This document shows positions 1 through 12,041 of a stretch of DNA of 12,041 nt, piece by piece. Position 1 is the stretch's first letter. Each line of letters starts with the position of its first letter. Source of the DNA: a virus; the IMG/VR virus record IMGVR_UViG_3300045988_161355, positions 1 through 12,041 of that record, one strand, 5' to 3'. Made by a program: the position numbers and the translations under genes. Below the pieces are notes generated by a model, which made no database searches, had not been told where the DNA came from, and saw only the letters and a list, made by a program, of their open reading frames with translations.

Positions 1-170
1 ATCCCCCACGCTCCCTTACCTCACAACCTAATTTAAATCCAGAGATTCCAACCTTTGGCGCTCATACCTAAGGCGTGCCACCTAGTTATCAAAACAAGAC
101 TATCACACTAACTTTATAACACATAGTTATCATTAACACTTGACAACGTTAATAAAAAAGGCTAGACTAA
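1..170. repeat. Left inverted terminal repeat (ITR-L), 170 bp
   Basis: Bases 1-170 are the exact reverse complement of 11872-12041; I checked all seventeen 10-mers with no mismatch. Identity breaks at 171 (t) versus the complement of 11871 (a). Terminal sequence is 5'-ATCCCCCACGCTCCC. Confidence 0.95.
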
Positions 171-179
171 TGTCTAACC
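151..179 (-). terminator. Rho-independent terminator ending the minus-strand gene array, straddling the ITR boundary
   Basis: Minus-strand RNA reads GGUUAGAC-AUUA-GUCUAGCC (8-bp stem with one G.U pair, 4-nt loop) followed by UUUUUUAUU. It lies 14 nt downstream of the ATPase TAA (193-195). The 5' arm lies outside the ITR and the 3' arm plus U-run lie inside it. Confidence 0.6.
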
Positions 180-192
180 TAGTTATTTAATA

Positions 193-1265
193 TTAAAGAT
201 TATAACACCATTCAAGATATGCGTTGACCAAGTCGCCTACTTCATTACTTTGATAAAAGACTTTATCATCTTTAAATAGACTTTGTATTAATTTAGCATA
301 TGGTTGCGTTCCTGTAAGTATATTTCTATGATGAAGAGGATTGACGCTAAATTCCTGTTGATAAATTATTGAGGTATCTCTCTTAGTCATTTCACGTGTA
401 AAAGGCATGATGAAGATAAATAGAGTTTTATCAACATTGACAATGTCGGCTTTTAACGTTTCGCCGTCAAAACATATGAAAAAGTTCATTATGATGTTTT
501 TAGGCACGTACTTAATAGGTAGTTTAGGATAAATAGCTATTTGCCAATAGCCTTGAGTTATCATTTTTAGTTTAGGATTGTTAAAACCAAAATAAGTGGA
601 TTTTGACAGTTTACTTTCATTGTCATCACGTTTACGACAATATTCAAGGGCAACCGTTGTTAAACTTTCGCCGTAAGTATAAAAATCAATAGTGCCTTGT
701 TTTTGTTTCTTAACATTAGTCAACCCCATTTCCTGGAAGTATGGACAATATTTAGAAATTGTATTACCTAACATAAAAATTTTTACACCAAGTCTATCAC
801 GTATAATAGTTGACAGTAAGTTTTCAAACTCAACGAATTCATCCTCTAAATAACTACCACTTGTTATTACTTCATCATAAATTATTGTTTGTACGTTAGG
901 GTATTCATAGCTTTTATAATTAAGTTCATCTTGAACGTTGAATCTATGACCGACAAGGGCTTCACGATGTACTATTCCTTTATCATCAACATTACACAAC
1001 CAAAAGTCATTTTGATAGTAATTCATAATACTATATTCCCCCTTAGTCCATTCTTTAATAGGTTTATTGCATAGCTTTTGAATGTCTTGAGCTTTCATTT
1101 CATCGCGTCGTCTTCTTATATATGCAAATCTATTACCGTTTTTAATAAACTCTTTTACGGCATATTCTAGACATGCAAACGTCTTACCATTCGAACGCTC
1201 GCCAATTATAAAGTTATATACAGCGTTAAGCTGTAATATTTTAGTTAATTTATAATATTTTTTCA

Positions 1266-1266
<1 letters not shown>
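193..1266 (-). CDS. DNA encapsidation (packaging) ATPase, phi29 gp16-like
   Basis: 357 aa. The N-terminus NFIIGERSNGKTF...FAYIRRRRDEMK parallels the phi29 gp16 N-terminal Walker A region (FVIGARGIGKS...FIYVRRYK, from memory). Walker A is GERSNGKT and Walker B is TIIYDEV. The ATG at 1264-1266 overlaps the pol stop as TAATG. An AAAGGAGG SD lies upstream. Confidence 0.85.
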
Positions 1267-4065
<2,799 letters not shown>

Positions 4066-4086
4066 TTTAATACCTCCTTTTTTAAT

Positions 4087-4117
4087 TAGTCTTAAAGACT
4101 AGCTTATAAGGCTAGTC
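4087..4117 (-). terminator. Stem-loop with alternative pairing between the 163-aa gene and the TP gene (leaky terminator or attenuator-like element)
   Basis: Minus-strand RNA reads AAGGACUAGC-CUUAUA-GCUAGUCUUU (8-10 bp stem) and covers the TAG stop of the 163-aa ORF (4112-4114). Arm 4096-4103 can alternatively pair with 4087-4092 (UAGUCU-UUA-AGACUA). The downstream U-run is short (UUU), so termination is probably partial. Confidence 0.4.
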
Positions 4118-4603
4118 CTTAATAGTGATATCGACATCATCGAACATATCTTTAACTTTATCAATGTTTAAATTTTCAACCATATCAGAGTTTAAAGCCT
4201 TAGGTTGTTGCTTTTCCTCTTCCTCAGTCACGAAAAACCATTCGTTTTTATCTTCATGTTTAGGGGCTTCATTCTCTAAAACTACATATTTTAGCACGTT
4301 GTTGATGTAAATACAAGGGTATTTTTTCTTGCCGTCTTTTCTAATATAAGGATCATAACCAAAGTCAGGAGTTGAAAAGTCACTTGTTAATAAACTACCT
4401 TTGTACTTGGTTAGTGCGTTGATATCTAGCTTATAAGGGCTTAAAGCTGAGGTGTCTAGATTTTGGCTAAATCTTACACCAACATTCATATACTTACCCT
4501 CTTTATTAATTAGTTTAGTGTAATACGTCGGAAATTTATTTCCTGTTGAACTTGTTCTCTCTCCCTTGTAAAGTGTAATTAATCTCTTGTTTAAATTTTG
4601 CAT
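4112..4603 (-). CDS. Hypothetical early-region protein (163 aa) with acidic C-terminus; possible ssDNA/dsDNA-binding replication accessory protein
   Basis: Long ORF on the coding strand in the replication module upstream of TP/pol. The acidic tail (EEEEKQQ...DMFDDVDITIKD) is reminiscent of SSB C-tails. There is no SD (AGGAAAG is about 30 nt upstream) and TAAAAT sits 6 nt before the ATG, so the mRNA may be leaderless. Function unknown. Confidence 0.55.
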   Translation of the reverse strand: MQNLNKRLITLYKGERTSSTGNKFPTYYTKLINKEGKYMNVGVRFSQNLDTSALSPYKLDINALTKYKGSLLTSDFSTPDFGYDPYIRKDGKKKYPCIYINNVLKYVVLENEAPKHEDKNEWFFVTEEEEKQQPKALNSDMVENLNIDKVKDMFDDVDITIKD

Positions 4604-4683
4604 AATATATTTTAACGTTGATTTTTTTTCTTTCCTGAGGTTTTATCAACAAACCCAATTTTAATTAATTAATTTGTGTATAA

Positions 4684-5034
4684 TTAGTATACTATAATAG
4701 TACCATTTTGTATAGTAATATCGTTAACATATTGTCCTGTAGGAGATGCTACAAAGTGTCTAATAGCAATATCGTAAATTGTATTAACACCTTTTTTAGC
4801 ACTCGCTTTAATTAAACGTTTATGATTATATACACGTTTTAAAGCAGTTTCTAAATCAGGCAAATTATTTATATTAACTTGATTTCCTGTTATACCTTCT
4901 TCACTATTGAAATAAGCAATACTAATAGAATAATATTCATTTTTCATTTTTATTAATTCCTTTCGTCTAATATAAATAGCGTCAGTGTCGCTATACATTC
5001 CATAAGTTGTTAAATATCGTTTTAAACCGGACAT
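4684..5034 (-). CDS. Hypothetical protein (116 aa)
   Basis: ATG preceded by AGGTGG. Coding-strand ORF with no recognisable motif. Confidence 0.5.
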   Translation of the reverse strand: MSGLKRYLTTYGMYSDTDAIYIRRKELIKMKNEYYSISIAYFNSEEGITGNQVNINNLPDLETALKRVYNHKRLIKASAKKGVNTIYDIAIRHFVASPTGQYVNDITIQNGTIIVY

Positions 5035-5129
5035 ACGTCCACCTATTGGAAAATTAAAATTTTTATAAGATTCTAAAACCTCATTTAAACTATAATAATG
5101 ATTTTTTCATTTTAATCATTTCACCTCAT

Positions 5130-5324
5130 TTAATCTAATTCCTCTAAAACTAGATATAGTAATATTGATAATACTATTAGTACAAATAACACTAAATTAC
5201 CTATACTAACATATAACAATAATTCAATATTAAATACTGAATAAAGTACAATACCTGTTATTATTAATAACACGTAAATGTTAAAAGTGATAATTAATAA
5301 TATTCTTCTCATTTTTTCACACAT
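5130..5324 (-). CDS. Small two-TM membrane protein, holin-like (64 aa, or 60 aa from the second Met)
   Basis: Two hydrophobic helices (ILLIITFNIYVLLIITGIVLYSVF and LLLYVSIGNLVLFVLIVLSILLYLVL), a basic N-terminus (MCEKMRR) and a short charged C-terminus (EELD). Its ATG overlaps the stop of the upstream 58-aa ORF (TAAGGATG). Confidence 0.45.
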   Translation of the reverse strand: MCEKMRRILLIITFNIYVLLIITGIVLYSVFNIELLLYVSIGNLVLFVLIVLSILLYLVLEELD

Positions 5325-5326
5325 CC

Positions 5327-5503
5327 TTAAATGTAAACCGGGTAAACTTCAACAATAACTAAATCAAGTGTACTTGTAATATTGCTAATTGAAATGCAAG
5401 GAGCTAATCCTTTACCTAACATAAAATGTCTCAATTCTACTATACTATCAAAGTAATAGTTATCTCTTTGTAAATGTAATAAATATGTTGTTTTTGTAGT
5501 CAT
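5327..5503 (-). CDS. Unannotated small ORF, 58 aa (MTTKTTYLLHLQRDNYYFDSIVELRHFMLGKGLAPCISISNITSTLDLVIVEVYPVYI)
   Basis: Not in the supplied ORF track (below its length cutoff); I translated it by hand. TGGAGGAATTAAAA-ATG is a strong SD with 8-nt spacing. It fills the otherwise unexplained 5325-5516 gap. Its SD overlaps the stop of the 73-aa ORF and its own stop abuts the holin-like start. Confidence 0.5.
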   Translation of the reverse strand: MTTKTTYLLHLQRDNYYFDSIVELRHFMLGKGLAPCISISNITSTLDLVIVEVYPVYI

Positions 5504-5516
5504 TTTAATTCCTCCA

Positions 5517-5738
5517 TTATCTTTTTAAAAATTCATAAATGTTATAATAACCACTAACAACACGTTCGAGTTTCCATTCATCATTATATACACATAGTTC
5601 ACTAATGTTATCTTGCTTCAATTTAATGAAATAATTGAAACATGCAATGAAATAATTGAAACATGCTTTCTTACTGTGGGTAATTCTTGCATAAGCATCA
5701 TAAGCGTCATAGTTATGTTTTTTTAAAATATAAATCAT
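5517..5738 (-). CDS. Hypothetical small protein (73 aa) containing a duplicated heptapeptide ACFNYFI-ACFNYFI
   Basis: AAGGAGGTATTAAA-ATG is a perfect SD, identical to the 17-mer in front of the TP gene. It contains the 21-bp perfect tandem duplication at 5625-5666. Confidence 0.5.
   Translation of the reverse strand: MIYILKKHNYDAYDAYARITHSKKACFNYFIACFNYFIKLKQDNISELCVYNDEWKLERVVSGYYNIYEFLKR
5625..5666. repeat. Perfect 21-bp tandem duplication (aatgaaataattgaaacatgc x2), in frame within the 73-aa ORF
   Basis: 5625-5645 equals 5646-5666 exactly. The duplicated unit is 7 codons. Confidence 0.9.
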
Positions 5739-5750
5739 TTTAATACCTCC

Positions 5751-5981
5751 TTAAAATATTATTTCGTCACAACTTATAATACATCGTCCATTGAAAACAT
5801 GTAATTTTTTACAATTAATCAAATTAATAGTAGTAATGTTATTAATATCTTTATTATAACATGTACATACCATTTCATTTTTATTATACATGTAAACAAT
5901 CTTTTCACTTCCATTAATTAATGTGTTAAGTAATTCCTTATAATTATTAACATTCATTTTCATTTTAAACCACCTTAGCAC
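5751..5981 (-). CDS. Hypothetical small Cys-rich protein (76 aa from the GTG at 5981; 70 aa from the ATG at 5963), possible zinc-binding
   Basis: Pattern C-x-C-x15-C-x9-C-x3-C in an otherwise Cys-poor proteome. AAGGTGG + 6 nt precedes the ATG at 5963. GAAAGGAAG + 7 nt precedes the GTG at 5981. It is the first gene downstream of the internal promoter. Confidence 0.5.
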   Translation of the reverse strand: MLRWFKMKMNVNNYKELLNTLINGSEKIVYMYNKNEMVCTCYNKDINNITTINLINCKKLHVFNGRCIISCDEIIF

Positions 5982-6011
5982 CTTAGTGCTTCCTTTCTTC
6001 TTTACGTCTAT

Positions 6012-6039
6012 AGTTTATCACAAAAAAGTGACTTTTCAA
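6012..6039 (-). promoter_or_regulatory. Internal sigma70-type promoter with extended -10 (TTGAAA - 16 bp - TGaTAAACT), minus strand
   Basis: Minus-strand sequence reads cTTGAAAagtcacttttttgTGaTAAACTatag. It lies in the 148-bp non-coding gap 5982-6129, just downstream of the tail-knob terminator and upstream of the small-ORF, lysis and replication block. A GCAC-UAAG-GUGC hairpin and an AAGGTGG SD follow in the 5' UTR. Confidence 0.4.
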
Positions 6040-6087
6040 CAAGAAAATGAAAAAAGGCTTTATAAACTTATTTTCTAAAGTTAAACA

Positions 6088-6115
6088 TAATAAAAACCCT
6101 CAATTAAGAGGATTC
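6088..6115 (-). terminator. Intrinsic terminator after the tail-knob gene
   Basis: Minus-strand RNA reads AAUCCUC-UUAAUU-GAGGGUU (7-bp stem including one G.U) followed by UUUAUUAUGUUU. It begins 15 nt after the TAA at 6130-6132. Confidence 0.5.
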
Positions 6116-6129
6116 TAAACTTTATTTAA

Positions 6130-7668
6130 TTAAGTGAACGGGTAATCATTTTCATCATAATAAGACGTCCATACACCATTTTGAAGCAATTCAAGAATAG
6201 TATTCTCAGCAGTTAACGTATAATTACCTTCTTTTAGTCGTTGTCCGGGGGCTATGTTAAAGTATGCTTTTGAAAAATCTTCTAGTGATACAAAGTTCAT
6301 AACTAAACGTCCATAGTTATTTACAACATCAATATAATTAATTATTTCTTTATAGGCTATAGTATAATTGCTCTTTTTATATTGTACGAATGCAGATGCA
6401 CCGGTTATTGTTCCCCCGCTTGCTCTATCAACAATGCTATTAGCAGTCTTTGCTGTTCCTGTAACCATTCCAACAAATTGATTAGTGGCGTTTAAAAGTC
6501 CTAAAGGATTACCTGTTAACCCCGCTACGGCTACGCTTGAAATAGCACCAACACCACTTGCGATAGTGTTCCATATACCATTTTTTTCCTGTACGTTATT
6601 TTCATAAGCGTTTGTGCTATTTAATGATAATAGTATACCTAGTTGATAAGTGTTAGTATAGATAATTCTTGATGCATTGCCTTTCACACTAGTTATGTAA
6701 ATAGTTGCTTCACCGGTCGTTAAGTTTATCATTGAATTAACTAATAAATGAGCACCCACACAATCTAAATAATTAACTTGAACGCTTCCATACGCAACAA
6801 TATAAAGCGTTATAACACTATCACTGAACCTTGTAGCATCATTAAAGCTTATCAATGATAATCTAGTGAAATCGTAATCCGCTATAAGGTTATATTCATA
6901 TCTATTAGGAGCTATAGGCACGTTTGATATACCTTTTATATTTTCATTACCTACTTTAAAAGGTATTGTTATAGCACTTCCTGTGTTATCTCTAGCATAA
7001 TCGATATATATTGGAAATTTAATTATTGATTTAATGAACGTTTTTAAATTATCGTTTGAAATGACAGCCTGTGATAAACTTTTTAATTGACTTTCAGTTA
7101 GTTCATAAATTTGTTCATTAACTTTATTTGGAGGCGCGAACATATTACCCTCCAATCCATTAATAGTACTATTACCTATTTGAACCGATGTTGCCTCAGG
7201 TGTAATAATACTAACTATATATGTACTATTAGGATTTAAAGTCATATTAGTTGTTTTATTAATGATAGGGTTAGTTTGATCGTTAATAATACTTATTTCG
7301 TCATTCTTTAAAAATAATTCATCTTTTAAAGTGAAATTATTAAATTGATTAGCACGCTCAATGTATAGTTCTTCTTTTAAGATTTTTTCTTTATATGTGT
7401 ATAAATAATCAAGTTGAATATACCAACGCATTATACCTCCGTTTAGAAGCTCTATATTATCAATATAATAATAGTATTCTTTGTTATTCCAAGACGTTGA
7501 AATATAGGCTATATCTTGTAATTCGATAGCATCTTTAACATCAATATATGTCGCATTAATATTAAAAGGTTTCAACAAGTTTATGTCAATTGTTTTTGAT
7601 AAGTGAATTGAATAATATTTGTCTATGACTGCTCTAGGTCCTTTTATATCGTAAATTTTAAAAATCAT
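6130..7668 (-). CDS. Tail knob / distal tail tube protein, phi29 gp9-like (512 aa)
   Basis: A C-terminal segment ILELLQNGVWTSY resembles the phi29 gp9 C-terminus (IRTIFDNGITLWH, from memory). A long Gly/Ala/Ser/Val-rich hydrophobic segment (GIWNTIASGVGAISSVAVAGLTGNPLGLL...ASGGTITGASAF) matches the gp9 channel-forming loop region. An aromatic-rich N-domain (EYYYYIDNIELL...WYIQLDYLYTY) matches the gp9 FEIDVLQTW region. AAAGGAGGTTATAAA-ATG is a strong SD. Confidence 0.6.
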   Translation of the reverse strand: MIFKIYDIKGPRAVIDKYYSIHLSKTIDINLLKPFNINATYIDVKDAIELQDIAYISTSWNNKEYYYYIDNIELLNGGIMRWYIQLDYLYTYKEKILKEELYIERANQFNNFTLKDELFLKNDEISIINDQTNPIINKTTNMTLNPNSTYIVSIITPEATSVQIGNSTINGLEGNMFAPPNKVNEQIYELTESQLKSLSQAVISNDNLKTFIKSIIKFPIYIDYARDNTGSAITIPFKVGNENIKGISNVPIAPNRYEYNLIADYDFTRLSLISFNDATRFSDSVITLYIVAYGSVQVNYLDCVGAHLLVNSMINLTTGEATIYITSVKGNASRIIYTNTYQLGILLSLNSTNAYENNVQEKNGIWNTIASGVGAISSVAVAGLTGNPLGLLNATNQFVGMVTGTAKTANSIVDRASGGTITGASAFVQYKKSNYTIAYKEIINYIDVVNNYGRLVMNFVSLEDFSKAYFNIAPGQRLKEGNYTLTAENTILELLQNGVWTSYYDENDYPFT

Positions 7669-7683
7669 TTTATAACCTCCTTT

Positions 7684-7715
7684 AATAAAAAATAGACTAG
7701 GCTATAAAAGCCTAG
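7684..7715 (-). terminator. Intrinsic terminator after the major capsid gene
   Basis: Minus-strand RNA reads CUAGGCU-UUUAU-AGCCUAG (7-bp stem) followed by UCUAUUUUUUAUU. It sits 10 nt after the MCP TAA and immediately before the tail-knob SD. The sequence is clearly related to the 4087-4117 element and to the ITR-junction terminator. Confidence 0.6.
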
Positions 7716-7724
7716 CCTTTAAAT

Positions 7725-8885
7725 TTAAGCTACATAGAATACAACAAAGTTTTCATCAAATGAGTTGAAGTATCTAGCTTCTTGTTTATAAAAATAGTTA
7801 GTAAATTCACTCTTAGCGTTGTAGTTAGTTAACACACGTCTATCATATAGATTAACACCTAAAGCGTCATTGTCAAACATTACAGCTAGAATTCCGTCAG
7901 CCTCAATAGTGTCGCCCTCGGATGTTTTTACATGTATTTTTGAAACATCGGCAAAATCATATGCCTCGCCTGTTCCTTGCCACTTAACAACTGTTTCCGC
8001 GAGTGGAAGTTCGGTTAATTCATTATGATATGTATCACTTTGTAGGAATACATCGCTTGCACGTTTCAAATCACTTAACATAATGACATGTAATAGATTC
8101 TTAGGCGTAAATCGTTGCTTCTTTTCAATGTTGAATAACACTGAGTATGTCTTTAACATGTCGATATACTTACCCATTTTATAAGTAGCAAATCTAATGA
8201 AGTCCTTATCATAAATACATTTTTCTTTCGTTAATGTAGTTGTGTAAGTATCATTATATAATTTCAATAAATTAACGGCTTTTGATCCTGAGTGTTGTGA
8301 ATAATTGCCGTTAGGTACTTCATTTTTTAAAGTCACACCGATAAAATTATTAATAGTACGTTTAATCAAATTCTCAGTTGCTAAAGTTAAAGCATTATTA
8401 ATCTTTGTGAAAATCATTTCAATGAATCTATTCATTTCATACGCACTTGTAAAGCTTTCGCGTACTTGTCGGTCAGTGATAGAGCGGTCAACCTCAAACG
8501 TTGTTAGTCCATTATAGAATTTAACGCTTACTCCATTAGGAGCATTGAAAATGTTAGGGTCGTATGACGTTCCATTTTCAAGTTGCCAGCTTTCATTCTC
8601 GCTAACGTCAGGTAGGTCGGCATCAACTTTACCTAAAATGGAACCATATTCCCATGAGTCCATTAGAACCTTAATTCCGTCACCTTGGTATTGTCTATCA
8701 ACAAAAACCATTCTACCAATTCTATTAACTAAAGCACGTACATAATTGTCATATGCCTTAGCGTTTTCAATTGTTTCGCCTATTGTGACTAAGTTTGATA
8801 AATCTTCTGTAAGTAAAGTCGTTTCTTCCCCTAAGGTAGACTTTAACACCTCATTTACTAGGGGAGCTATTTGTTTAACTTCCAT
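7725..8885 (-). CDS. Major capsid protein, phi29 gp8-like (386 aa)
   Basis: The N-terminal region ...YVRALVNRIGRMVFVDRQ matches the phi29 gp8 block ...SLVDRIGLVVIRQ (from memory). It has the size and position of an HK97-fold podophage MCP. SD is AAGGAGG + 9 nt. It is followed by a strong terminator. Confidence 0.8.
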   Translation of the reverse strand: MEVKQIAPLVNEVLKSTLGEETTLLTEDLSNLVTIGETIENAKAYDNYVRALVNRIGRMVFVDRQYQGDGIKVLMDSWEYGSILGKVDADLPDVSENESWQLENGTSYDPNIFNAPNGVSVKFYNGLTTFEVDRSITDRQVRESFTSAYEMNRFIEMIFTKINNALTLATENLIKRTINNFIGVTLKNEVPNGNYSQHSGSKAVNLLKLYNDTYTTTLTKEKCIYDKDFIRFATYKMGKYIDMLKTYSVLFNIEKKQRFTPKNLLHVIMLSDLKRASDVFLQSDTYHNELTELPLAETVVKWQGTGEAYDFADVSKIHVKTSEGDTIEADGILAVMFDNDALGVNLYDRRVLTNYNAKSEFTNYFYKQEARYFNSFDENFVVFYVA

Positions 8886-8899
8886 TTCTTTTTTCCTCC

Positions 8900-9619
8900 T
8901 TATTTTAAATTAATAGTTATAGTATTATATCTAGTTTTTTCAAATGGTGAAAGATAGAATTTTTTATTTACTTTATTCGATTGAGTTGGATGTTTAGAAC
9001 CCCATGGTATAACATTCGTTTCATATTCCATAGTTGTAGTATTAATAACCCCATTATCAAAGTCCTTTATATATAATTGATTATAGTATGAACCCGAAAA
9101 ATTAAGTTGTTCCAATGCACGAATACTACCTATTGCAATATAATGATTATTATTATAATCATACTCAATAGTGACAGTTCCAACAATTGGAAATAAATTT
9201 CTTAAAATTGGTTCAGACCAAACTTGACTAACTGGCTGATAAATATTTAAATGAAATCTAGCTTTTACAATATTGGCATCCTCCGAATTAATCACGTAAA
9301 TATTAGCTATGTCATTTATTGAAATATTATAATTGTATAATGTAGTATATGATTTAATCGCTTTACATGTAATTTTATTTGGTTCAACTACTATATGATA
9401 GCCATATAATTCAAATTCATAATTACTATTATTTAATTTTATTGAAACAAATGTTGAATTATGTTCAACTTCATTAATAAAAATATTTGTAATTAAAAAC
9501 GCTTTACTTTTGTAAGCGCTTTCAATAATTGGGTAAATTGAATTATTTAACGTTTCCTCATCGTCTAGGTCAATTCCTTTAAAATCAATAATTCTATAAC
9601 CACCTTGTGCATTATTCAT
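8900..9619 (-). CDS. Fibre / receptor-binding-like structural protein (239 aa from the ATG; the ORF-track GTG start at 9628 gives 242 aa) with a conserved N-terminal anchor module
   Basis: The N-terminus MNNAQGGYRIIDFKGIDLDDEE is paralogous to the N-terminus of the adjacent 93-aa ORF. The rest is an Asn/Tyr/Ile-rich beta-type composition typical of fibres and spikes. AGAGGCAGGTGTTAAAA-ATG is a good SD for the ATG at 9617-9619. Its stop TAA sits inside the MCP SD. Confidence 0.5.
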   Translation of the reverse strand: MNNAQGGYRIIDFKGIDLDDEETLNNSIYPIIESAYKSKAFLITNIFINEVEHNSTFVSIKLNNSNYEFELYGYHIVVEPNKITCKAIKSYTTLYNYNISINDIANIYVINSEDANIVKARFHLNIYQPVSQVWSEPILRNLFPIVGTVTIEYDYNNNHYIAIGSIRALEQLNFSGSYYNQLYIKDFDNGVINTTTMEYETNVIPWGSKHPTQSNKVNKKFYLSPFEKTRYNTITINLK

Positions 9620-9893
9620 TTTTAACACCTGCCTCTTTTGTTGTGATTTTTGTTAGCCCTTGTTCATCCCTTGAAAAAGTACAATCTCTATTGTAGATTA
9701 TTGCTTCACCGTCATTATAAGAAATGAAAATAGGGGCTTTTGCTTTTGAGTTAATTCTAATACCTGTTAACATAATAGGTTTATCAATTTTTTCAAGTTC
9801 GTTGATAATATCAGCTCTTGCTGTTATGTCGGCCTCGTTTAAATCAATACCCGTTAAAGATATCATTCTATAACCGCCTAAATTAGTATTCAT
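9612..9893 (-). CDS. Small structural protein (93 aa from the ATG; the track's 96 aa uses an upstream GTG) sharing the N-terminal module with the 239-aa protein
   Basis: MNTNLGGYRMISLTGIDLNEAD versus MNNAQGGYRIIDFKGIDLDDEE. AGGAGGTGTTAAAA-ATG is a strong SD. It overlaps the downstream gene start by 8 nt. Confidence 0.5.
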   Translation of the reverse strand: MNTNLGGYRMISLTGIDLNEADITARADIINELEKIDKPIMLTGIRINSKAKAPIFISYNDGEAIIYNRDCTFSRDEQGLTKITTKEAGVKNE

Positions 9894-9895
9894 TT

Positions 9896-10732
9896 TTAAC
9901 ACCTCCTATTAATATAATAAGGTATTGTAATAACTTTGTCAATATCTTCATATATCATATTGATAATATCTAGTTTTCGTAATGAGATTTCACTTTCTAT
10001 CATTTGTTGACTAGTTGTCACCCCGATGTTTCCACTTCGTGTTAGTTTTTCGGTTCCGGTTGCTTTTATAGTTCTATTAGTATCAACGTTGTTGCTTTCC
10101 GTTCCTGTGGTTGTATAATCATCCGTTTTCGTTGTATCATCCGTTTGAGTTGTTGAATCTGTATTGTTAATAGTATTATCACTACTAACAACAATTTCAT
10201 TTTTATCATTGTTAACATATTCACTAGGGTTATTAAATGGACTAACTAAATGTGTATTAGAAGTATTTTCGCTGTTATTAGCCGTTGATTGTGATGAGCT
10301 ATCATTCTTAATTGTTCCGGTATTCTTTGTTGTGCCTGTATTAACTAGGCTATTATCTTTTGAAGATTGTTCGTTTTCAACCTCCGTTGTTGTTAGATTA
10401 GGAGTTCTTTCCTCTTCCATTGAATAATTTTCAATAGGATTATAATCGCTATAGAAAGCCTGAGCCAACCTTAACCAATTAGGGAAGTATTTAGCGTGAA
10501 TAACTTTTGAACAAAAATCGAGTTGGCCTTCATCAACTTGTAATAACCTACTTTGAATTAATTCATATGCATGATTGAGTTTATAATCAGTATCAAAAAT
10601 TAACCATTCTTCATTAGATATTGAAAGTAATTGTTGAAGTTTAACTACATCATCATTATAATTCGTTTTTAACAAATCAAATAAGTTAAACCCCTCAATA
10701 TCTCCAATAGTTAAAGTGTTATCAAACTTCAT
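9896..10732 (-). CDS. Structural/morphogenesis protein (278 aa): lower-collar or scaffold candidate with a long S/T/N/D-rich disordered centre
   Basis: ATGA overlap with the portal stop (translational coupling). It has the position that gp11 holds after gp10 in phi29. Helical N- and C-terminal segments flank about 130 aa of low complexity (NTGTTKNTGTIKNDSSSQSTANNSENTSNT...TDDTTKTDDYTTTGTESNN). No specific motif recognised. Confidence 0.3.
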   Translation of the reverse strand: MKFDNTLTIGDIEGFNLFDLLKTNYNDDVVKLQQLLSISNEEWLIFDTDYKLNHAYELIQSRLLQVDEGQLDFCSKVIHAKYFPNWLRLAQAFYSDYNPIENYSMEEERTPNLTTTEVENEQSSKDNSLVNTGTTKNTGTIKNDSSSQSTANNSENTSNTHLVSPFNNPSEYVNNDKNEIVVSSDNTINNTDSTTQTDDTTKTDDYTTTGTESNNVDTNRTIKATGTEKLTRSGNIGVTTSQQMIESEISLRKLDIINMIYEDIDKVITIPYYINRRC

Positions 10733-11670
10733 TTTTTAATATCCTCCTTAACTTCTTCTTGTTCCACCTTATGAGCTTCAACAACTTGTTCAAAAGTTGT
10801 TTTCCACATAGGTGATAAATCAACAATAATGTTTAAATTATGGATTTCATTAACTTTTTTAAATCCTTCTTTTAGATTATTTAACATATCTTGAATGAAA
10901 GGAATCAATGCTTGTTCATTAAGTCCGCTTTCACTTTCGTTTATGCTTTCACGCTTCATATTGTAGTTAGCATTAACACCTATTTCATTCCATAAACTAG
11001 CAACACAATATTGTTTCAACTCAATTAAATCTTTTAAATTATTAACTCTAACCGGTTGTTGAACGTCTTTTAATCCCTCTTGTCCTTGTAAAAAAGCGTT
11101 TGAAACTATTGCACTTGGTTGAATTCCATCTTCAACAGCTTTATTATAGTTATCAAAAGCATCTTTCACACTTTGAGTATCAGCAACAAAAGTATTTACT
11201 TTACGTGTATTTATTACACCTAATCTTAGCGATAAATCACATTCAGTCATTATAGTGGCATATTTATTAATAAGAGGGTATAATCCCATTAAGTAAGTAT
11301 CATTCCTTATTAATACAGCGTCCTTATCATCTTGAATAGTTAAGGTCTTATCATAATTTAAATAAGGGTTGGAAATTATTACTTGAGTTGGTTCATAGTA
11401 TGTGTTATACACTCCTCCTAGCCCACCTGTAAAAGCATATAGTTTTCCCTTAATTTTTTCATTAGGCACTACACACCAACCATATGAAAATAGTAAACGT
11501 AATATATTATGTTTAGGTATGCTTTCAGGCAATCCCTCAATATCAAAAATTGAAAAACACTTATCAAAAAAGTAAAGTACATAGCTATCAAATAGACTTT
11601 CTTTATTGAAACCTCCTTGAGGTATGTTTAACAACCATTCTTGACGCTTATTTACTTGTGTTTTTGACAT
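10729..11670 (-). CDS. Portal / head-tail connector protein, phi29 gp10-like (313 aa from the ATG at 11670; the track starts at the TTG at 11679)
   Basis: Blocks FDIEGLPESIP...FSYGWCVVPNE...KLYAFTGGLGGVYNTYYEPTQVI parallel phi29 gp10 FEWENLPPTINP...FGYVGFYKDP...[21 protein letters not shown] (from memory). It is about 310 aa, like gp10. The TGA stop overlaps the next start (ATGA). Confidence 0.75.
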   Translation of the reverse strand: MSKTQVNKRQEWLLNIPQGGFNKESLFDSYVLYFFDKCFSIFDIEGLPESIPKHNILRLLFSYGWCVVPNEKIKGKLYAFTGGLGGVYNTYYEPTQVIISNPYLNYDKTLTIQDDKDAVLIRNDTYLMGLYPLINKYATIMTECDLSLRLGVINTRKVNTFVADTQSVKDAFDNYNKAVEDGIQPSAIVSNAFLQGQEGLKDVQQPVRVNNLKDLIELKQYCVASLWNEIGVNANYNMKRESINESESGLNEQALIPFIQDMLNNLKEGFKKVNEIHNLNIIVDLSPMWKTTFEQVVEAHKVEQEEVKEDIKK

Positions 11671-11854
11671 TGATATCAACTCCTAACTTATCACTTAATT
11701 TAATTAATGCTTGTGTATTATTTTCAATGGTTGCCGTAAGTTTACTAATCTCTTCTTTGTGCTGTTCATTTAATTTATAAATTACGTAAACTAGAATTAA
11801 ACACATAGCACAAGGAAACCCAACCATACTTATTAATTGTGTGACTTTGTCCAT
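11648..11854 (-). CDS. Small membrane protein (68 aa from the ATG at 11854): N-terminal TM helix plus C-terminal coiled-coil-like segment
   Basis: MDKVTQLISMVGFPCAMCLILVYVIYKL is followed by a charged heptad-like tail. AGGAGGTG + 5-6 nt precedes the ATG at 11852-11854. The ORF-track 84-aa version starts at a TTG that is in fact the TTG of the -35 hexamer inside the ITR. It is the first gene after the ITR promoter and overlaps the portal start by 23 nt. Confidence 0.5.
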   Translation of the reverse strand: MDKVTQLISMVGFPCAMCLILVYVIYKLNEQHKEEISKLTATIENNTQALIKLSDKLGVDINVKNTSK

Positions 11855-11871
11855 AATAACACCTCCTATAT

Positions 11872-12041
11872 TTAGTCTAGCCTTTTTTATTAACGTTGTC
11901 AAGTGTTAATGATAACTATGTGTTATAAAGTTAGTGTGATAGTCTTGTTTTGATAACTAGGTGGCACGCCTTAGGTATGAGCGCCAAAGGTTGGAATCTC
12001 TGGATTTAAATTAGGTTGTGAGGTAAGGGAGCGTGGGGGAT
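11872..12041. repeat. Right inverted terminal repeat (ITR-R), 170 bp
   Basis: Exact reverse complement of 1-170. It ends the window, consistent with the window being a whole linear protein-primed genome. Confidence 0.95.
11874..11902 (-). promoter_or_regulatory. Consensus sigma70-type promoter at the inner edge of the right ITR, reading inward (TTGACA - 17 bp - TAGACT)
   Basis: Minus-strand sequence reads cacTTGACAacgttaataaaaaaggcTAGACTaaatatAGGAGGtgttattATG. The -35 hexamer is perfect and the spacer is 17 bp. The predicted TSS falls a few nt before the SD of the first gene. An identical copy exists at 140-168 on the plus strand of the left ITR. Confidence 0.4.

Follow-up and report, generated by a model that had tools for sequence, protein, structure and literature searches.

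The DNA analyzed here (hereafter the window) is a stretch of 12,041 bp with a GC content of 29.5%, and it is a complete linear, protein-primed, phi29-like genome that is related to the Astrithrvirus phages. All credible genes of the window lie on the minus strand. Read from the right end, they encode a 68-aa membrane protein, the connector, proteins of 278, 96 and 242 aa, the phi29-type capsid protein and a 512-aa protein, followed by four small proteins, proteins of 116 and 163 aa, a 204-aa candidate terminal protein (TP), the DNA polymerase and the packaging ATPase. The family B polymerase, the phi29-type capsid, the connector and the gp16 ATPase were recognized by PF03175, PF25622, PF05352 and PF05894 together with the matching PHROGs. 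The first gene (ATG at 11854, 68 aa) and its Shine-Dalgarno (SD) sequence AGGAGG (11867-11862) occupy positions 11648-11867 of the minus strand; the product is a small membrane protein with a GFP motif, homologous to that of the first gene of the metagenomic relative L110 and of the small gene after the ATPase in phages astrithr and Phanie. At the other end, the protein-primed family B DNA polymerase (1266-3521, minus strand; PHROG 1907, E 2e-61; PF03175) is followed by the last gene, the gp16-like packaging ATPase (193-1266, minus strand, stop codon at 195-193; PF05894, E 7e-21; PHROG terminase). The 204-aa ORF (3451-4065, minus strand) had no family match in Pfam or PHROG searches and, in a pairwise comparison, weakly resembled astrithr gp02 (E 8e-4); it is the candidate TP by virtue of its position directly upstream of the polymerase. 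No endolysin was recognized among the 16 proteins scanned with Pfam and the 10 scanned with PHROGs, and an Rfam search of the whole window at E <= 1 gave no phi29 pRNA or other RNA family and a single chance-level hit.

A near-identity DNA search of GenBank phages returned no match to the window. The nearest named relatives were Astrithrvirus phages, with an ATPase identity of 43-46%, and scans of metagenomes and genomes yielded only relatives with less than 50% ATPase identity, whose MAG labels were too mixed for a host to be named. Three IMG/VR contigs from one sample proved to be strain-level relatives of the window (97-99% protein identity). Among the four strains, the fraction of variable columns reached 50% in the 242-aa gene (8900-9628) and 36% in the block of small genes (5130-5981), against 10-16% elsewhere, and these two regions are probably host-range and host-takeover modules. 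The 242-aa protein also has an N-terminal region of ~60 aa in common with the 96-aa protein encoded at 9612-9902 (38% identity, E 2e-8), which looks like a tandem partial duplication.

The genome is bounded by inverted terminal repeats (ITRs) of 170 bp, at 1-170 and 11872-12041, which are 100% complementary to each other without a mismatch. The two copies change together in relatives: position 150 is T at both ends of the window and G at both ends of contigs 165396 and 167400. Contig 165396 carries its own ITR variant, whose first base is that of the ATCCCCCACGC terminus of the window and whose inner 34 nt are found again at its other end, and contig 155009 corresponds exactly to the unique region 171-11871, breaking at both ITR boundaries. 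Thus, three independent contigs agree that the ITR and the ends of the window are real. In contig 167400, 8 additional bases (CACAGTGA) were found outside the terminus. C-rich 5' termini (ATCCCCCAC, CCCACCCCC, CCCCCC...) are common to positions 1-15 of the window and the ends of L143, L153, L006, L182 and L205, and they probably reflect the protein-priming origin. The ITRs also contain two direct copies each of TAGTTATC, which occurs 8 times in the window compared with 0.93 expected and may be a protein-binding motif. This sequence and a near copy, TAGTTATT, which lies directly beside the left-end hairpin described below, map to 83-90 and 124-131 with their mirrors in the right ITR, and to 180-187, 1805-1812, 3047-3054, 5457-5464 and 11147-11154.

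The initial annotation of this DNA had noticed the motif TTGACA-17-TAGACT in the inner part of both ITR copies and had assigned the right copy to the first minus-strand gene. Both points stood up to closer analysis. The right copy, on the minus strand at 11874-11902, consists of TTGACA at 11902-11897, a 17-nt spacer and TAGACT at 11879-11874, and it forms a predicted sigma-70-type promoter with a predicted start at about 11867. Its -10 element ends 6 nt before the SD sequence and 19 nt before the ATG at 11854. Since the genome is linear and the SD sequence of gene 1 is only 5 nt from the right ITR boundary, the promoter of this gene must be ITR sequence, and the motif is the sole candidate in the ITR with at least 9 of 12 consensus matches. 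It matches at 10 of 12 positions, with a perfect -35 (6/6) and a weaker -10 (4/6), in which T1, A2 and T6 of the consensus are present and no TG extension is found. The promoter rules were assumed from the strong TTGACA/TATAAT motifs of the relatives, and the consensus of the host may differ. The predicted leader of 13 nt, with the SD sequence at its extreme 5' end, is unusually short. Promoter-like sites numbered 85 in the whole genome versus 74.6 +/- 9.1 in shuffled sequences, and a 10/12 match alone is not significant in a genome with 29.5% GC. A perfect TTGACA at a spacing of 16-18 was found at only two independent sites in the genome, one of which is the ITR motif.

Strain variation provided a second line of evidence. 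Among the four strains, only 1 of 31 columns varied over the motif at 11874-11902, compared with 16.5% in the outer ITR. When the three ITR variants were compared, 23 of 139 outer columns were variable versus 1 of 33 in 138-170 (one-sided Fisher test, p = 0.03; counting the unique hairpin arm as well, p = 0.009). The single variable column in 138-170 falls in the promoter spacer and is changed at both ends, and TTGACA is conserved while the adjacent bases 133-137 vary. The conservation of 153-170 is not assignable to one end, because the ITR copies are homogenized and the terminator at the left end alone could explain it. Taken together, these features suggest that the right-end motif is probably the promoter of the first transcription unit.

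At the left end, the same ITR bases take part in a hairpin. On the minus strand, AGGUUAGAC-AUUA-GUCUAGCCU (159-180) forms 9 pairs (4 G-C and 1 G·U) around a loop of 4 nt, with the tail TTTTTATTAA and the U-tract UUUUUU at 153-158, inside the spacer of the left promoter copy. The hairpin begins 12 nt past the ATPase stop codon TAA (195-193). Its 5' arm (180-172) is unique DNA, and its 3' arm (167-159) is ITR sequence overlapping the -10 of the left promoter copy. In plus-strand terms, AGGCTAGAC (159-167) and GTCTAACCT (172-180) enclose the loop TAAT (168-171), so that the ITR junction at 170/171 lies within the loop, T171, the first unique base, being a loop base. The initial annotation was right in drawing a hairpin across this junction, and its coordinates for the unique arm (171-179, GTCTAACC) were off by one, the correct ones being 172-180. 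Folding of both strands, which had been proposed there as a check, gave -12.4 kcal/mol (z = -5.3) for the minus strand and -9.2 kcal/mol for the plus strand; the hairpin is stronger on the minus strand because the plus strand has an A·C mismatch in place of its U·G pair. This asymmetry points to selection on the minus-strand RNA. Terminator-like sites were found 10 times in the genome versus 3.4 +/- 1.8 expected, and the three best calls on the coding strand fall in the gaps after the capsid gene, the 512-aa gene and the ATPase gene. Each arm of the stem is covered by 3-4 strains and did not vary among them, although the four strains differ at ~10-16% of columns genome-wide; these close strains carry no substitutions in the hairpin, and hence no covariation evidence for the stem is to be had from them. 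A pattern search of IMG/VR with CTTGACAACGTNAATAAAAAA for more ITR variants returned only the two contigs already known. The earlier designation of this hairpin as a terminator behind the ATPase gene thus agrees with our prediction: the minus-strand hairpin and U-tract make a convincing putative intrinsic terminator.

The left copy of the promoter motif occupies 140-168 on the plus strand, with TTGACA at 140-145, the 17-nt spacer and TAGACT at 163-168, and has a predicted start at about 174-177. As had been stated before, it faces only antisense DNA, all genes being on the minus strand, and no ORF or SD sequence was found downstream of it. Downstream of the 31-bp promoter core the two ends differ, one reading ATATAGG... 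and the other TGTCTAAC.... The initial annotation had further proposed that a plus-strand hairpin buries the left -10. We do not uphold this proposal, because the DNA is double-stranded and an RNA from the left copy would start inside the 3' arm of the hairpin and would not contain the structure. For the same reason, a plus-strand attenuator for the left promoter was considered and rejected, the transcript being without the 5' arm and unstructured. The predicted RNA from 175 onward was unstructured (z = 0.04), and a terminator scan revealed no terminator near it. Silence of the left copy is not visible in the sequence, since its bases do not differ from those of the right copy up to and including the -10. 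Most likely, the left promoter copy is a by-product of ITR homogenization.

Two further terminators were predicted inside the gene array, both on the minus strand. T1, after the capsid gene (7694-7718), has 10 pairs and a folding energy of -16.1 kcal/mol, with 2 of 56 columns varying; T2, after the 512-aa gene (6093-6116), has -10.2 kcal/mol, and a U·G pair of its stem is changed to C-G in two strains. A candidate internal promoter, TTGAAA-16-TGaTAAACT with an extended -10 (6012-6039, minus strand), is predicted for the unit of small genes, TP, polymerase and ATPase; it lies in the 148-nt gap after T2, upstream of the block of small and replication genes. The sequence of T1 (AGGCTAGGCT..AGCCTAGTCT followed by AUUUUUU) resembles that of the left-end terminator (AGGTTAGAC..GTCTAGCCT followed by UUUUUU), and the two may share an origin. 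With strong T1 and T2 and the candidate promoter at 6039-6012 following T2, the array appears to be split, and the ITR promoter need not drive all genes, so the previous suggestion that it launches the whole array is not borne out. Overall, the earlier observation was confirmed and its interpretation was partly supported.

To place the window in its family, we surveyed 70 distinct complete relatives with clean ITRs. The signal scans were made independently of gene calls, first-gene calls being noisy from spurious ORFs inside the ITRs. ITR lengths of 60-530 bp were the rule. Inward promoters with at least 11 of 12 matches were found 28 times either across the ITR boundary or up to 160 nt beyond it on the inner side, compared with 0.046 per kb per strand in genome interiors. 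A promoter of this strength wholly inside the ITR occurred in none of the 70 relatives, and a 10/12 promoter wholly in the ITR and followed by an SD sequence and a start codon was found only in the window and in L014, whose ITR of 534 bp (1-534) covers, at each end, the promoter and the 5' portion of a gene. In four relatives (L019, L199, L208 and L220), the ITR ends with the -35, and the -10 lies beyond it in unique DNA. The ATPase-terminal relatives (L110, L123, L105, L139, L129, L143, L153, L163 and L167) all have a hairpin with a T-tract after the ATPase gene, the hairpin sequences being unrelated to that of the window. In L110, L201 and L082, the hairpin adjoins the ITR and its T-tract is ITR sequence, the same A-tract lying just upstream of the promoter at the other end, and in L194 and L204 a complete terminator is present in both ITRs (118-150 and 103-135 from each end, respectively). 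From these sequence comparisons, the window appears as the extreme of a series in which ITR boundaries hug transcription signals. The survey also revealed a palindrome, TGTTTCACGTGAAACA, which occurs itself or in near variants in or beside the ITRs of L016 (134-149), L206, L182, L047, L019, L143 and L249 and is absent from the window; its recurrence suggests a possible shared operator or origin-binding site.

Based on the sequence features above, we favor, with moderate confidence, a model in which the ITR carries a promoter at the right end and half of a terminator at the left end, and in which the left promoter copy is dispensable. At the right end, the inner ~30-31 bp of the ITR would act as a host sigma-70-type promoter with a predicted 5' end at about the first base of the SD sequence, and the first transcription unit would run from gene 1 through the connector and capsid genes and onward. 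At the left end, the same bases would supply, on the other strand, the 3' arm (167-159) and the U-tract (158-153) of a terminator that would end the TP-polymerase-ATPase transcript before RNA polymerase meets the terminal replication origin. The left promoter copy would exist because the two ITR copies are kept identical, and would not be needed there. RNA polymerases coming from the ATPase gene would cross its -10 and be released in its spacer, either blocking the promoter or running into whatever is bound there; the left copy is probably occluded by this passage and would yield at most an unstructured antisense RNA. The ITR could extend through the promoter and half of the terminator only because bases 153-167 can serve both roles. 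Such an arrangement may have arisen from an ancestor resembling L220 or L110, in which the ITR ended after the -35 and was abutted by the terminator; gene conversion from the left end would then have lengthened the repeat by ~25 nt, and TAGACT, the complement of the terminator arm, would have become a usable -10. Transcription continuing from the ATPase gene across joined genome ends into gene 1 was also considered and rejected, as joining should create a 340-bp palindrome with the terminator in between.

Several other explanations have to be weighed against this model. An assembly artefact as the source of the 170-bp ITR, or of its inner boundary, seems hardly credible. The window is probably a metagenomic assembly and contig 167400 runs 8 bases beyond the terminus, but the same terminal base, an independent ITR variant and the recurrence of the inner 34 nt in contig 165396, together with the precise stops of contig 155009 at both ITR boundaries and the ITR lengths that are the norm in the relatives, argue against it. 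It also appears very unlikely that the hairpin works as DNA, for example by folding in the displaced strand during protein-primed replication and thereby marking or limiting the boundary of the ITR (panhandle). The loop does contain the ITR boundary exactly, and palindromes are found at the inner ITR edge in several relatives, such as L016 and L206. However, a G·U pair on one strand and an A·C mismatch on the other fit selection at the RNA level on the coding strand, the U-tract and the location 12 nt past a stop codon are classic features of a terminator, and formation of a panhandle would instead engage bases 159-167 in pairing with the opposite ITR copy.

The two remaining alternatives concern the promoter copies, and we regard both as improbable, though less so than the preceding ones. 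In one of them, TAGACT is not a true -10: bases 153-170 would be maintained as the left-end terminator and copied rightward by ITR homogenization, and gene 1 would be transcribed from other ITR bases or with a non-canonical sigma factor or host. The 4/6 match of the -10, the genome-wide insignificance of a 10/12 match, the predicted leader of just 13 nt and the assumed nature of the promoter rules would be compatible with this reading, and the similar sequence in T1 after the capsid gene suggests that the block began as a terminator. Yet no other ITR site has at least 9 of 12 matches, the -35 is perfect, lies at the optimal 17-nt spacing and is conserved beside the variable bases 133-137, positions 1, 2 and 6 of the -10 are T, A and T, and clear sigma-70 promoters occupy the equivalent position in relatives. 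In the other, the left copy is active and useful: either it would fire an antisense RNA toward the 3' part of the ATPase gene, or an RNA polymerase held by it would collide head-on with oncoming ones, and in this way ATPase and polymerase expression would be tuned, or termination strengthened and the terminal origin shielded. It is known that expression and termination can be adjusted by antisense transcription and by collisions between polymerases (PMC4731013; bioRxiv 10.1101/2022.10.23.513370). The identity of the two copies through the -10 and the presence of the terminator release site within the spacer of the left copy would fit such a role, as would L220, in which the T-tract beside the ATPase gene is overlapped by a second promoter-like motif, TTGACA-18-TAAAAT, whose -10, however, lies outside the ITR. 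On the other hand, the other ATPase-terminal relatives have no inward promoter of at least 10/12 at that end, the predicted antisense RNA is without structure, ORF or nearby terminator, and a T-tract read on the opposite strand can readily look like a -10 by chance when the DNA is AT-rich. We consider it equally doubtful that the overlap is a selected dual-coded element and no accident, in which the polymerase bound at or firing from an active left copy and the embedded terminator would jointly, through head-on collision or an antisense RNA, set the levels of ATPase/polymerase transcripts and protect the terminal origin; if this were true, the ITR boundary would be kept in the hairpin loop because both functions are under selection.

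Comparison with known systems showed both shared and divergent features. Salmonella phage astrithr, Acinetobacter phage Phanie and their metagenomic relatives resemble the window in genome size (~11-13 kb), in having ITRs with sigma-70-type promoters beside them, and in encoding polymerase B, a gp16-like ATPase (the 43-46% identity given above), a connector and a phi29-type capsid. The gene order, however, is circularly permuted: in astrithr and Phanie, the ATPase, the small GFP-motif gene and the connector are contiguous in mid-genome (3073-4352 in L008 and 3218-4519 in L010), whereas the genome ends of the window and L110 fall between the ATPase and the small GFP-motif gene. In contrast with astrithr and Phanie, all genes of the window run one way, and the promoters of Phanie are 35-50 nt inside the ITR boundary rather than within the repeat. 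The unidirectional genomes L110, L201 and L082 are more similar, with an inner ITR A-tract that is the distal U-tract and lies just upstream of the promoter proximally, and L110 also has the ATPase as its last gene and the same small first gene as the window. In these three, neither the hairpin nor the promoter hexamers belong to the repeat; because the ITR of the window reaches ~12 nt further, its whole promoter and the 3' arm of its hairpin have become overlapping repeat sequence. A complete promoter (L014) or terminator (L194 and L204) within the ITR is a point of likeness, but L014 has a gene start at both ends and L194 and L204 have the same outward-reading terminator hairpin at both ends, whereas in the window one repeat sequence has two different predicted roles.

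In phi29, the C2 promoter is repressed by p6, and the left early transcripts continue to the genome end (PMC11476376). C2 is likewise a promoter for the host RNA polymerase near the end of a protein-primed genome and close to a replication origin; the phi29 ITR is only 6 bp, so its promoter is not repeat sequence, and there is no left-end terminator, in contrast with the window, whose end is guarded by a predicted one. Outside phages, the ITRs of AAV and the DIRS-1 element carry promoter activity (PMC11320455, PMC4482531), and terminal repeats that double as replication elements have promoter activity at both ends (PMC11320455; bioRxiv 10.64898/2025.12.03.692098; PMC4482531). These are eukaryotic hairpin or retroelement ITRs, in which no terminator is made from the same bases, and they have no sequence relationship to the window.

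In the literature on this phage group, we found no description of promoters or terminators in ITRs. To our knowledge, no other ITR sequence has been predicted to provide a promoter core at one genome end and half of a terminator at the opposite one. Ordinary intrinsic terminators are ubiquitous, and the promoter and terminator parts of the window are themselves ordinary; their predicted combination in an ITR appears to be a neat variation. The practical impact would be modest. If the model is true, one DNA sequence would encode two opposite signals, with the -10 and spacer of a promoter on one of its strands and the arm and U-tract of a terminator on its complement, and would be held identical at both genome ends by the mechanism of replication. 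It would also imply that, in a minimal linear genome, the ITR spreads inward until the sequence is unable to serve both ends, a view that the survey of the family supports. The location of promoters and terminators at ITR boundaries in dozens of relatives provides a testable annotation rule for the transcription units of very small phages.
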